Source: Escherichia coli (lineage in GTDB: Bacteria; Pseudomonadota; Gammaproteobacteria; Enterobacterales; Enterobacteriaceae). Taken from it: a stretch of 64,000 nt of DNA. The notes beneath the pieces are model-generated. The model saw only the letters and a list, made by a program, of their open reading frames with translations, did no database searches and was not told where the DNA came from. Position 1 is the stretch's first letter. Each line of letters opens with the position of its first letter. The DNA lies in the NCBI RefSeq assembly GCF_030013205.1, contig NZ_CP122648.1. One strand, 5' to 3'. Of this stretch, positions 4,387-50,650 are shown in pieces. Both the position numbers and the translations under genes were made by a program.

Positions 4387-4793
4387 GTGAAAAGGTGGTG
4401 TTCAGTCAACTGAGCCGTAAATTTATTGATGAGAACGATGCCACGCCCGCCGAGGCGCAGCAGGTGGTCTATTACAGCCTGGCGATTGGTCACCACCTTG
4501 GGGTTATCGATTGCCTGGAAGCGGCGCTCACCTGCCCGTGGGATGAATATCTGGCATGGATTGCCACTCTGGAGGCGGGCAGCGAAGCCCGCCGCAAAAT
4601 GGAAGGCGTACCGAAGTACGGTGAGATCGTCATCGACATTAACCATGTGCCGATGCTGGCCAATGCATTCGATAAAGCCCGGGCAGCGCAAACTTCGCAG
4701 CAGCAGGAATGGAGTACAATGCTGTTAAGTATGCTGCATGATATTCATCAGGAAAACGCCATCTATTTGATGGTGAGGAGATTGCGTGACTGA
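4383..4793 (+). CDS. hycH: Formate hydrogenlyase maturation protein HycH
   Basis: 136 aa, 4-nt overlap with hycG, conserved position. Confidence 0.88.
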
Positions 4794-5256
4794 CGTTTTA
4801 CTCTGTGTTGGCAATAGCATGATGGGCGATGATGGCGCAGGTCCGCTGCTGGCGGAAAAGTGCGCCGCCGCGCCGAAAGGTAACTGGGTGGTGATTGACG
4901 GCGGTAGTGCACCGGAAAACGACATTGTCGCTATTCGCGAACTGCGCCCGACACGACTGCTGATTGTCGACGCCACGGATATGGGGCTAAACCCCGGCGA
5001 GATCCGCATCATCGATCCGGATGATATCGCCGAGATGTTTATGATGACTACCCATAACATGCCGTTGAACTACCTTATCGACCAGTTAAAAGAAGACATT
5101 GGCGAAGTGATTTTCCTCGGCATCCAGCCGGATATCGTCGGCTTTTACTACCCGATGACCCAGCCGATTAAAGACGCCGTAGAAACCGTTTATCAACGGC
5201 TGGAAGGCTGGGAAGGGAACGGCGGATTCGCGCAGTTAGCGGTGGAAGAAGAGTAG
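4786..5256 (+). CDS. hycI: Hydrogenase 3 maturation endopeptidase HycI
   Basis: 156 aa, overlaps hycH stop, last gene of hyc operon. Confidence 0.9.
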   Translation: MTDVLLCVGNSMMGDDGAGPLLAEKCAAAPKGNWVVIDGGSAPENDIVAIRELRPTRLLIVDATDMGLNPGEIRIIDPDDIAEMFMMTTHNMPLNYLIDQLKEDIGEVIFLGIQPDIVGFYYPMTQPIKDAVETVYQRLEGWEGNGGFAQLAVEEE

Positions 5257-5327
5257 TTCGTAGACAAACATGTTCACGTTTTGGAATTTGGACGTGCTAT
5301 TGTGACGTGTAGACGGGTGTTTACATA

Positions 5328-5356
5328 TTGTGAACACCCGTGTGATCAACTACTAT
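5328..5356 (+). promoter_or_regulatory. Candidate sigma70 promoter (TTGTGA-N17-TACTAT) overlapping a perfect-arm palindrome CGGGTGTTtACA-tat-TGTgAACACCCG (5314-5340); putative HigA operator
   Basis: Direct reading of sequence about 70 nt upstream of the higB-like ATG; palindromic operators overlapping the promoter are typical of type II TA autoregulation. Confidence 0.4.
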
Positions 5357-5422
5357 AGAAAAATAAATCCGAAGGAATGGTAGTCCAGGTATAGTCATTC
5401 AGGCGCTAATAAGGAAGTTAAA

Positions 5423-5734
5423 ATGCACATCATTTCGAAAGCGCCATTTGAAGAGTGTGCGCGCAAATATCCTAACGACGCTCTGGCTCTACACTCATTG
5501 TATCGGGTTATTAAGGAAACGGATTTTTCTACGCCAGAAGAAATGCGAACGGCGTTTCCCAACCTCGACAATTTTAAATATCGCAATAAATGGTACGTTC
5601 TGGATGTCGGCGGGAACAATCTTAGGGTTATTGCCTACATAAACTTTGTTAATAAGCGGTTCTTTGTGAAGCACATAACTAATCACGCCGAGTATGACAA
5701 ACTGACACGTTACTACAGAGAGAACAAAGAATGA
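5423..5734 (+). CDS. HigB-like toxin (RelE/ParE superfamily mRNA interferase), paralog of K-12 HigB
   Basis: 103 aa; shares MH..KA...KYP, FPxLDNFKY, VGGNxLRV and HxEYD blocks with remembered E. coli HigB (YgjN); good SD (AAGGAAG) upstream; AT-richer than flanks. Confidence 0.8.
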   Translation: MHIISKAPFEECARKYPNDALALHSLYRVIKETDFSTPEEMRTAFPNLDNFKYRNKWYVLDVGGNNLRVIAYINFVNKRFFVKHITNHAEYDKLTRYYRENKE

Positions 5735-6150
5735 CTGCTAATGCTGCACGCGCTGTTAAAGCAACAAGAGAACTGGTCAATGCAGTCCCCTTTCTGGGAG
5801 GCAGTGACTCAGAAGATGATTATCGTGAAGCACTGGAACTGGTCGAATATTTGATTGAAGAAGATGATACTAATCCACTTATCGACTTTCTGGCGAGCCG
5901 CATTGCAGAATATGAAAACAATAACGAAAAGTTTGCAGAGTTCGACAAAGCCGTTGCAGCAATGCCGGTTGGCGTGGCGTTACTTCGTACGCTGATTGAT
6001 CAACATAATTTGACCTATGCGGATTTGAAGAACGAAATCGGCTCTAAATCTCTGGTCAGTCAGATTTTGTCTGGGCAACGATCCCTGACGATATCCCACA
6101 TTAAGGCACTTTCAGCCCGATTTGGCGTTAAGCCGGAATGGTTTCTTTGA
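5731..6150 (+). CDS. HigA-like antitoxin (XRE-type HTH DNA-binding protein)
   Basis: 139 aa; ATGA start/stop overlap with toxin; C-terminal EIGSKSLVSQILSGQRSLT helix-turn-helix; overall similarity to remembered HigA (YgjM). Confidence 0.8.
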   Translation: MTANAARAVKATRELVNAVPFLGGSDSEDDYREALELVEYLIEEDDTNPLIDFLASRIAEYENNNEKFAEFDKAVAAMPVGVALLRTLIDQHNLTYADLKNEIGSKSLVSQILSGQRSLTISHIKALSARFGVKPEWFL

Positions 6151-6176
6151 TTTTGACTGATGCCAAACCCAAGATT

Positions 6177-6201
6177 GCCCGATGCGCAACGCTTATCGGG
6201 C
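6177..6201. terminator. Hairpin GCCCGAT-N11-ATCGGGC between convergent higA-like and ascB
   Basis: Inverted repeat seen in sequence, located between two convergent stop codons. Confidence 0.4.
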
Positions 6202-6228
6202 TTTCCTGGTTCGTGCGACGGTAGTTAC

Positions 6229-9119
<2,891 letters not shown>

Positions 9120-10389: not shown

Positions 10390-10537
10390 ACATTGTCATC
10401 ACATGTCATCGTCACTAGTGTCGATGACATCGTTTTTCCTGCATTACATAATTTAATTTCTTTAAATAACAGTAAATTAAAAACTGGCATGATTTGTGAA
10501 TGTATCGGCGCATTAACTGTCATTGCTGGAGAATTTG

Positions 10538-11065: not shown

Positions 11066-11217
11066 AAATCTTACAGAACTGTTCTGGCATCAAAGGAATT
11101 CCCGGAAATATTCGTAGAATACGGAGCGGGCGGTATCGCCGACCTGTGACTGCCGGATACGACGCTGTCGTGTCCGGCTGGGCGGGTTACGCAATTCATG
11201 ATGGCGGGAATAACTCA

Positions 11218-20022: not shown

Positions 20023-20065
20023 TCTATTAGTCGCGCGGAGATCCTTAAAAGATCTCCGCTGTTGA

Positions 20066-24235: not shown

Positions 24236-24733
24236 ATGACTGACAGTGAACTGATGCAGTTAAGCGAACAGGTTGGGCAGGCGCTGAAAGCCCGTGGCGC
24301 AACCGTAACAACTGCTGAGTCTTGTACCGGCGGTTGGGTAGCGAAAGTGATTACCGATATTGCCGGCAGTTCCGCCTGGTTTGAACGCGGATTTGTCACC
24401 TACAGTAACGAAGCCAAAGCGCAAATGATCGGCGTACGTGAAGAGACGCTGGCGCAGCATGGCGCGGTGAGCGAGCCTGTCGTGGTGGAAATGGCGATAG
24501 GCGCACTGAAAGCGGCTCGTGCTGATTATGCTGTGTCTATTAGTGGTATCGCCGGGCCGGATGGCGGCAGTGAAGAGAAGCCTGTCGGCACCGTCTGGTT
24601 TGCTTTTGCCACTGCCCGTGGTGAAGGCATTACCCGGCGGGAATGCTTCAGCGGTGACCGTGATGCGGTACGTCGTCAGGCTACTGCGTATGCATTGCAG
24701 ACCTTGTGGCAACAATTTCTACAAAACACTTGA
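24236..24733 (+). CDS. pncC: NMN amidohydrolase PncC (CinA-like)
   Basis: 165 aa from MTDSELMQLSEQVGQ; immediately upstream of recA. Confidence 0.88.
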   Translation: MTDSELMQLSEQVGQALKARGATVTTAESCTGGWVAKVITDIAGSSAWFERGFVTYSNEAKAQMIGVREETLAQHGAVSEPVVVEMAIGALKAARADYAVSISGIAGPDGGSEEKPVGTVWFAFATARGEGITRRECFSGDRDAVRRQATAYALQTLWQQFLQNT

Positions 24734-25874
<1,141 letters not shown>

Positions 25875-34082: not shown

Positions 34083-34139
34083 TCAGTAAACTATCTTCAC
34101 AATTAATTGAAAAAAGCCAGTTCAAATGAACTGGCTTAG

Positions 34140-45791: not shown

Positions 45792-47936
45792 TTAAAGTGC
45801 ACACGAGACGCAGCCTTCAATTTCAGTGCCTTCCAGCGCCATCTGACGCAGGCGGATGTAATAGAGCGTTTTGATACCTTTGCGCCAGGCGTAAATCTGC
45901 GCTTTGTTGATATCGCGAGTGGTGGCGGTATCGGGGAAAAACAGCGTCAGCGACAGCCCCTGATCGACATGGCGAGTCGCTTCCGCGTAAGTGTCGATGA
46001 TCTTTTCTGCGCCAATTTCGTAAGCGTCCTGATACAGCGCCAGATTCTCGTTAGTCATAAACGGGGCAGGGTAGTAAACGCGTCCTGTTTTGCCCTCTTT
46101 GCGTATCTCTACTTTCGCCACAATCGGATGAATACTCGACGTAGCATGGTTGATATAAGAGATAGAACCGGTTGGCGGCACCGCCTGAAGATTCTGGTTG
46201 TAAATGCCGTAGCGCATCACGTCGTCGCGCAGCTGCGCCCACATCTCACGGGTAGGTAACGTAATACCGCTACGGGTAAACAGTTCGCCAACTTTCGCCG
46301 TTTTCGGCTGCCAGTTCCCTTGCAGATATTGGCTAAAATATTCACCACTGGCATAGCGTGACTGTTTGAACCCGGCGAAGGTTTCACCGCGTTCGCGCGC
46401 CAGCAACATCGAGGTACGCAGTGCGTGCCAGGTGATGGTATAGAAATAGAGATTGGTGAAATCCAGTGCTTCCGGCGACCCATAAGCGATGCCTTCTCGC
46501 GCCAGATAGCCGTGTAAATTCATCTGCCCCAGTCCGATGGCGTGTGAGGCGGCATTTCCGGCTTCGATGGACGGCACGCTGCGGATATGACTCATATCTG
46601 ATACTGCCGTTAAACCGCGCACGGCAGTCTCTACCGTGCGGGCAAAGTCGGGGGAATCCATGGTGTGGGCAATATTCAACGAACCTAAATTGCAGGAAAT
46701 ATCATGGCCTGTGCGGGCATAGTCGAGATTCTCGTCATACTCTGAGGCGCTGTTAACCTGCAAAATTTCTGAGCAGAGATTGCTCATATTTATGCGCCCG
46801 GCGATAGGGTTAGCACGGTTAACCGTGTCTTCATACATGATGTAGGGATAGCCGGACTCAAACTGGATTTCTGCCAGTCGCTGGAAGAAATCACGGGCGT
46901 TGATGTATTTTTTGCGGATGCGTTCATTGGCAACCAGTTCGGCATAGTGTTCACTGATGGCGATATCAGCAAACGGCTTGCCATAAACCCGCTCAACGTC
47001 ATAAGGCGAAAACAGTGCCATCTGCGCATTCTCTTTTGCCAGATGGAAAGTGATATCCGGGATCACCACGCCCAGCGACAGTGTTTTAATGCGGATTTTC
47101 TCGTCGGCATTTTCCCGTTTCGTATCGAGAAAACGCAGAATATCGGGATGATGGGCATGTAAATAGACTGCCCCAGCCCCCTGACGCGCGCCGAGCTGGT
47201 TGGCATAGGAAAATGCGTCTTCCAGCATTTTCATCACCGGAATCACGCCAGATGATTGATTTTCAATACGTTTAATTGGCGCGCCCGCTTCTCGCAGATT
47301 CGACAGCAAAAATGCCACGCCGCCGCCGCGTTTCGACAGTTGCAGTGCGGAATTTACCGCCCGGCCAATCGACTCCATGTTGTCTTCAATACGCAGCAAA
47401 AAACAGGAAACCAGTTCGCCGCGCTGCTGCTTACCACAGTTGAGGAATGTCGGTGTTGCAGGCTGAAAGCGTCCTGACAGCATCTCATCGGTCAGTTGCG
47501 TCGCCAGTGTTTCATCGCCTTGTGCCAGCATCAGCGCCATCATCGTGACTCGATCGGCAAAATCTTCCAGATAACGCTTACCGTCGAATGTCTTCAACGT
47601 ATAGCTGGTGTAAAACTTCCATGCTCCGAGGAATGTCTGAAAACGAAAACCGCTGGCGTGTGCGTGGGCAAACAGCGTAATGACAAAATCGCGAGAGTAG
47701 CGGTTGAGGACGTTTTCATCATAGTAACCTTCGTTGACTAGCCAGTTCAGGCGCTGCTGCTGGCTACTGAAGGTCACACTGTTCGGACGCACATGTGTCG
47801 CCATAAAGGCGTCAACGGCCTGGCGATCTTTATCGAACTGAATGCGACCTGCGCTATCGTAAAGGTTAAGCATCGCATTCAGCGCGTGGTAATCCATCGT
47901 TTCCTGCGTCAGGCGTTCTGCGGTTGTCGTTGCCAA
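45792..47936 (-). CDS. nrdE: Class Ib ribonucleotide reductase alpha subunit NrdE
   Basis: 714 aa, C-terminal CxxC...CVSCAL. Confidence 0.93.
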
Positions 47937-50623: not shown

Positions 50624-50626
50624 AAA

Positions 50627-50650
50627 ACCCCGAAGCCAGGCTTCGGGGTC
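50627..50650. terminator. Bidirectional terminator hairpin CCCCGAAGCC-N-GGCTTCGGGG between convergent MocR-like gene and ygaM
   Basis: Perfect GC-rich inverted repeat flanked by A/T runs. Confidence 0.65.

Follow-up and report, generated by a model that had tools for sequence, protein, structure and literature searches.

The higBA (ygjN-ygjM) operon of Escherichia coli K-12 is transcribed from a single promoter upstream of higB, the start of which has been mapped by primer extension, and a PhigBA-lacZ fusion is repressed in strains that encode the toxin-antitoxin (TA) locus and also when a plasmid provides HigA; the inverted repeats of this promoter were drawn as putative binding sites only (PMC2814082). 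In the HigBA-like SehAB system of Salmonella Typhimurium, the antitoxin SehB is reported to be 46% identical to K-12 HigA and carries a C-terminal helix-turn-helix (HTH) domain; SehB binds its own promoter in EMSA and represses a gfp fusion, and both functions are lost when the HTH domain is mutated (PMC7160566). Two palindromes have been described at the putative -35 and -10 of sehAB (PMC7160566), in a first paper (PMC3868539) that is marked as retracted. As cited in PMC7160566, the HigBA complexes of K-12 and Shigella are reported to bind DNA tighter than HigA alone. SehAB is an example of a K-12-HigA-related antitoxin that represses its own operon, and its likeness to the locus described here, which lies in a 64,000-nucleotide stretch of E. 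coli DNA (hereafter the window), is at the level of protein and regulation. The likeness of HigB-HigA of Proteus vulgaris Rts1 is one of mode of action, not of membership: the proteins differ in architecture without relation to each other, and the operator sequences are unrelated. The P. vulgaris HigB belongs to a different Pfam family, and the operators of Rts1 HigA overlap the -35 and -10. According to PMC12266136, the Rts1 antitoxin represses its own toxin-first operon, and the HTH of P. vulgaris HigA is N-terminal (PMC6987408), unlike the C-terminal HTH encoded in the window.

In the window, hycI, the end of the hyc operon, stops at 5256 and is followed by a 166-nt intergenic region and then by an intact higB-higA pair, which is inserted between hycI and the convergent ascB; the E. 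coli strain K_EC180 is 100% identical over 5200-6260. The higB-like toxin gene (5423-5734, plus strand) encodes 103 amino acids with a PF09907 HigB_toxin domain (E 3.8e-23) and is called a HigB family toxin in RefSeq genomes, while the higA-like antitoxin gene (5731-6150, plus strand), whose open reading frame shares an ATGA overlap with that of higB, encodes 139 amino acids with HTH_3 at residues 85-138, that is, at the C-terminus. The antitoxin matches the structures of E. coli K-12 HigA (PDB 5ifg and others) with 124 bits, and the toxin shares 39% identity with K-12 HigB and the antitoxin 47% with K-12 HigA. With a PF09907 HigB encoded first and an antitoxin with a C-terminal HTH_3 directly downstream, the pair has the gene arrangement expected downstream of K-12-type HigA (YgjM-like) operators. 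A terminator scan made no call between hycI and higB, and hyc transcription could consequently enter higBA by read-through. Between higA and ascB lies a REP-like hairpin, GCCCGATGCGCAACGCTTATCGGGC (6177-6201), that is also found in the allele of this locus that lacks the cassette (L002) and is thus part of the backbone rather than of the cassette.

The preliminary description of this DNA pointed to a 27-nt near-perfect palindrome in front of higB. Such a palindrome is indeed present, CGGGTGTTTACA-TAT-TGTGAACACCCG (5314-5340, given without strand), with 12-nt arms and 11 of 12 possible pairs, and a repeat search extended it to 13-nt arms (5313-5325 and 5329-5341) that are separated by a 3-nt spacer and are 92% complementary (12/13). 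The sole mismatch in the arms is T5322 opposite G5332. When palindromes with 12-nt arms, at most one mismatch and a spacer of 0-5 were counted, the window contained 14 (about nine distinct elements), compared with 1.09 ± 1.34 in dinucleotide shuffles, and when the 166-nt intergenic region was shuffled 20,000 times, only 41 of the shuffled sequences contained such a palindrome, which is thus non-random. At its center is GTTTACA-TAT-TGTGAAC (5319-5335, likewise without strand), in which two 7-bp half-sites are separated by a 3-bp spacer. This 17-bp element, hereafter O1, is the only sequence in the 64-kb window that matches GTTxyCA-N3-TGy'x'AAC at all 10 fixed positions. The outer arms, each of 5 bp, are GC-rich and specific to the lineage with this promoter. 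Although the 27-nt palindrome exists, the comparisons given below indicate that the conserved functional unit is only its central 17 bp, so that the proposal of 27 nt as the operator unit stands in a reduced form. The operator strings of the window and of K-12 had no match in the literature text searched.

Several words resembling a half-site surround O1: GTTCACG at 5272-5278, TGTGACG at 5301-5307 and TGTGATC at 5341-5347. The second of these is preceded by TAT and duplicates TATTGTGA of O1. These words are conserved partly among strains and form no second 7-3-7 site around O1.

The same geometry is found upstream of K-12 higB, where CATCCGTTGCCA-ATC-TGGCAACGGATG is also a 12-3-12 palindrome that contains a 7-3-7 core, and the K-12 operon shares with that of the window the toxin-first gene order and the toxin and antitoxin families. 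A second, weaker copy in K-12, ATTGCCA-ATT-TGTCAAC, is located near the Shine-Dalgarno sequence. The two operons differ in that the K-12 half-sites are GTTGCCA and GTTGACA and are associated with an R-class recognition helix (SKSMVSRVL), whereas those of the window are GTTTACA and GTTCACA and are associated with a Q-class helix (SKSLVSQIL, with Q111 as the class-defining residue). K-12 possesses two operators 29 bp apart and close to the ATG, while the window possesses one that is 96 nt from the ATG. The chromosomal sites also differ, K-12 higBA being located between rlmG and fadH and that of the window between hycI and ascB. In K_EC180 the K-12-type higBA is absent from the rlmG-fadH site, at which rlmG adjoins fadH (L090, L091), so that this strain provides no example of the two paralogues in one cell. 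In the same strain ygiV adjoins ygiS, with no mqsRA annotated.

The preliminary description also placed the palindrome over a plausible sigma-70 promoter, TTGTGA-N17-TACTAT, about 70 nt upstream of the toxin ATG. The coordinates bear this out: the proposed -35 (TTGTGA, 5328-5333, plus strand) consists of the last base of the spacer and the right half-site of O1, and the proposed -10 (TACTAT, 5351-5356, plus strand) follows after 17 nt, 15 nt past the end of O1, and ends 66 nt before the ATG of higB at 5423. Only 8 of the 12 hexamer positions of this putative promoter agree with the sigma-70 consensus (4 of 6 for the -35 against TTGACA), and a promoter scan with a threshold of 9/12 did not call it; its support is thus comparative rather than intrinsic. 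The region after the -10 (5357-5422, plus strand) includes a predicted leader of about 60 nt, which follows from the distance of about 96 nt between O1 and the ATG, and a Shine-Dalgarno sequence, AAGGAAG, at 5411-5417. The center of O1 is 95.5 nt from the ATG, whereas in the family O1 lies 44-66 nt and O2, the second operator, 18-26 nt from the start codon. No O2 scoring at least 7/10 was found between O1 and the ATG of the window, and a search of positions 4500-7000 with Rfam at permissive E-values gave no match. A second promoter at TATAGT (5390-5395) was considered and rejected, as it lacks a -35 and reads TTTAGT or CTTAGT in other strains with the same promoter type.

To place O1 in its family, the pattern GTTnnCA-N3-TGnnAAC was derived from the window and K-12 higBA and fixed before relatives were collected. 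The 80 loci scanned, one genome per species, encode HigB relatives of 50-78% identity and represent a broad range of Proteobacteria, with members in Enterobacterales, Marinobacter, Vibrio, Burkholderiaceae, Pseudomonas and others. Sites that match at 9 or more of the 10 fixed positions occur 101 times in the 11.5 kb of 160-nt upstream regions and twice in the other 227 kb of these 80 loci, such that the motif is enriched about 1000-fold upstream of higB, and at least one site is present in 66 of the 80 loci. The 7-3-7 inverted repeat of O1 matches at all 10 positions, while arm complementarity outside the 17-mer is at the random level across the family (0.17-0.43). With a threshold of 8/10, two sites 27-40 bp apart bracket the -10 in 58 of 81 loci; O2 normally begins right after the -10, and the start codon follows within about 15-25 nt of O2. 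The window lacks such a pair and keeps only the operator at the -35. Four plasmid homologues from Cronobacter, Salmonella, Enterobacter and Leclercia that had been held out share the recognition helix of the window HigA and contain 10/10 sites of the form GTTCACA-TAT-TGTAAAC or GTTTACA-TAA-TGTGAAC. The motif accompanies higBA in many genera, within genomes and on plasmids whose surrounding sequences are unrelated. The operator pair is typical of the family and not universal, as the plasmid pCUNV1 of Cronobacter has a single operator, which is O2 without O1 and is preceded by a duplicated GTTATAGT. Homologues of the window higBA were also found on 745 plasmid records, 592 of which are from Klebsiella and most of which are non-mobilizable; relatives of the pair are thus plentiful on plasmids of Klebsiella and other enterobacteria.

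The closest relatives form a class in which the two operators are 38 bp apart. In the 15 loci of this class the -35, TTGTAA or TTGTGA, is derived from the right half of O1 at the same position as in the window, and O1, 15 nt and TATAGT, followed by O2, are found in 13 of the 15. O1 of the window overlaps its putative promoter in the register of all 15 of these loci, with the -10 starting 15 nt past the end of O1. The Q-class chromosomal relatives of Mangrovibacter, Pluralibacter, Photorhabdus and Xenorhabdus encode HigB and HigA that are 63-78% and 66-79% identical to those of the window, respectively, and the helix SKSLVSQIL is identical in nearly all Q-class higBA, whether chromosomal or on plasmids of Salmonella, Enterobacter, Leclercia and Cronobacter. 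Their operators in Enterobacterales read GTTYACA-N3-TGTRAAC, with the right half of O1 as the -35 and N17 to the -10, as in the window. In most of these relatives TATAGT lies between O1 and O2, which have a spacing of exactly 38 bp, and the leader is short; in the window O2 is missing, the -10 reads TACTAT, the leader exceeds theirs by about 35-40 nt and the operator has additional GC-rich outer arms.

The HTH regions of the HigA proteins were aligned and compared with the operators, pairing the residue equivalent to Q111, which by alignment to phage 434 repressor probably corresponds to a base-contacting position of helix 3, with the variable dinucleotide (xy) of the half-sites. Where this residue is Q, the dinucleotide is TA in 35 half-sites and CA in 7, with no other; where it is M, CA is found in 34 and TA in 3; K is found with GA in 53 and TC in 17, all TC cases having the helix SKGNVSK or close variants; and R is found with GA in 23 and GC in 21. 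The rule holds in both operators of a promoter and in several clades, the numbers being raw counts in which shared ancestry is ignored. The operator of the window, a TA/CA hybrid of a kind that also occurs among its Q-class relatives, agrees with its Q-class helix. Since the variable positions of the motif track the recognition helix of HigA, the site is tied to HigA and not to another protein. The mismatch of T5322 and G5332 is not a defect, as it falls where Q-class half-sites vary between T and C.

The gap between hycI and ascB (window 5257-6228; loci L001-L004 and L009) is a hotspot of polymorphism in E. coli at which at least five alleles occur: an empty one, found in K-12; a gene for a 252-aa hypothetical protein only; this gene with higBA (hyp-type); this gene with an orphan higA; and higBA only (window-type). 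The window-type allele was found in 343 of 5,426 complete genomes and the hyp-type promoter in about 748, so that about one complete E. coli genome in five carries one of the two types of higBA. The coding sequences of these types are approximately 97% identical, including HigA proteins that are 100% identical, whereas their promoter regions agree at only 21 of 51 positions upstream (41%), 7 of 14 in the spacer (50%) and 23 of 53 between the -10 and the Shine-Dalgarno sequence (43%). Between these flanks the block GTGTTTACATATTGTGAA (5317-5334) is identical at 18 of 18 positions. This difference between coding and promoter identity outside the 18-bp core suggests, from the alignment of window 5257-5422 with L001 1331-1503, that the promoter was swapped by recombination and did not diverge gradually. 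In the hyp-type promoter the core is flanked by AAGT...CTTGG and not by GC-rich arms, such that no long stem is formed, TATAGT is located exactly N17 from TTGTGA, and a half-site remnant, GTTTACT-TAC-TATCAGG, is found at the position expected for O2. As identity is confined to the core and the promoter register, conservation marks the 17-18 bp core and not the 27-nt palindrome. Among window-type genomes, 334 of 343 have an unchanged 33-mer at the palindrome, and strain WL297 differs at two positions of the right arm, of which one is the final base of the core (C5335 to T).

Based on the motif, its enrichment in the family, its covariation with the HigA helix and its promoter register, we consider it highly likely that the palindrome holds the single remaining operator, O1, of this chromosomal higB-higA operon and that the HigA-like antitoxin represses its own operon there. 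The architecture of autorepression by the antitoxin or the TA complex that had been proposed for this site is upheld in these respects and departs from the family in the absence of the second operator. We propose that the HigA-like antitoxin would occupy 5319-5335 as a dimer, with or without HigB on its N-terminal domains and probably as HigB-(HigA)2-HigB, with its two C-terminal HTH motifs placed on the half-sites GTTTACA and GTTCACA, 10 bp apart center to center. As the right half-site doubles as the -35 hexamer, the bound antitoxin would block access of RNA polymerase to TTGTGA-N17-TACTAT and keep higBA repressed, and depletion of the antitoxin would lead to derepression from a predicted start at about 5363. 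We infer the binding of HigA, this start, the repression and a co-repressor role of HigB by comparison with the related systems. Given the missing O2 and an operator that is 96 nt from the ATG, regulation may be weaker than in relatives or partly decayed. The element is thus very probably an ordinary and expected autoregulatory site of a type II TA system, in a somewhat eroded, single-operator form.

Instead of or besides a site for a protein, the 27-nt palindrome might function in RNA, forming a 3' stem-loop or terminator for the hyc operon. It is located 57 nt past the stop codon of hycI, RNA transcribed in the hyc sense would form a hairpin with 13 bp and a folding energy of -21.6 kcal/mol (z = -3.65 relative to shuffled sequences), and the GC-rich outer arms occur only in the allele in which hycI abuts higBA, as would be expected if the arms were selected for the hairpin. 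However, the hairpin is followed by UGUGAUCAACUACUAUAG with no U-tract and was not called by the terminator scan, and so does not have the form of an intrinsic (Rho-independent) terminator; Rfam gave no match at the palindrome; and the hyp-type allele keeps the 17-bp core without the long stem. The core, moreover, is conserved in sequence and not merely in pairing, and it covaries with the HigA helix, neither of which an RNA hairpin predicts, so that this explanation is unlikely. The lineage-specific outer arms may also have a role in RNA; such a role would leave the core unexplained. A similarly unlikely reading is that of a decaying relic, in which the operator sequence survives in an eroding TA locus while the promoter-operator no longer regulates. 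The loss of O2, the rearranged leader, a -10 of TACTAT that is weaker than the TATAGT of the family and the substitutions in WL297 are consistent with such decay, as are the other E. coli alleles that have lost higB (the orphan higA of L004) or the whole cassette (L002). Both reading frames are nevertheless intact and HigA has remained unchanged between the two promoter types, the core forms an island of full identity within poorly conserved flanks, nearly all window-type genomes retain the 33-mer, and relatives with a single operator exist, such as that of Cronobacter pCUNV1.

It is highly improbable that the palindrome is a site for another regulator, such as CRP, or a product of chance. TGTGA is found three times in the region (5301, 5329 and 5341), and the neighboring hyc and asc operons are regulated genes. 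The CRP consensus, however, requires TGTGA-N6-TCACA, an arrangement that is absent from the region, so that a CRP site is ruled out by the spacing of the half-sites; the motif travels with higBA through many genera and unrelated contexts and covaries with HigA; and the shuffles and the enrichment in the family exclude chance. A Xer/dif-like or attachment site was rejected as well, as the motif moves with higBA in unrelated contexts and is found in two copies around the -10.

The most reusable by-product of this analysis is the family motif with its apparent recognition rule; as regards the window, the outcome is chiefly one of annotation. A predicted operator is delimited precisely to 17 bp (5319-5335), together with a predicted promoter, for a widespread E. 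coli HigBA paralogue, and the covariation of the motif with the helix residue offers a simple rule for matching each HigA to the promoter that it is predicted to regulate and explains why paralogues need not cross-talk. Going further, we tentatively advance a combined proposal, about which we are more doubtful than confident: that one residue of HigA helix 3 (Q, M, K or R, with the GN variant) sets the dinucleotide of an otherwise constant GTT..CA half-site, and that the 27 nt serve both as a HigA operator on DNA and, by means of the added GC arms, as a 3' hairpin on read-through hyc mRNA. If such a recognition code were true, paralogues would be mutually insulated and could be re-programmed by single substitutions; if the dual use as operator and hairpin were true, formate-hydrogenlyase transcription would be linked to toxin-antitoxin expression.

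Other features of the hycI-ascB alleles concern the history of the cassette. The empty, K-12-like allele (L002 660-720) contains an apparent deletion scar that joins the start and the end of the gene for the 252-aa hypothetical protein. In the orphan-antitoxin allele (L004 1468-1540), higB is deleted except for its last ~30 nt and O1 is gone, which leaves higA without a recognizable promoter or operator of its own. ACTGA(C)/GACTGA is found at both ends of the higBA cassette (window 6155-6160; L001 ~1340-1346) and once in the empty allele (L002 ~708-713), and could represent microhomology for insertion or deletion of the cassette.

Of the other palindromes in the window, TGATACTGTATGAGCATACAGTATAA (24731-24756) is near-perfect and conforms to CTGT-N8-ACAG, the pattern of LexA boxes. 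It probably represents an SOS box and resembles the one in front of recA. The remaining palindromes with 12-nt arms and at most one mismatch are located at 10403-10430, 11152-11178, 20035-20059, 34113-34138, 46866-46892, 50626-50650 and 62542-62569, and several of them resemble terminators or REP elements.
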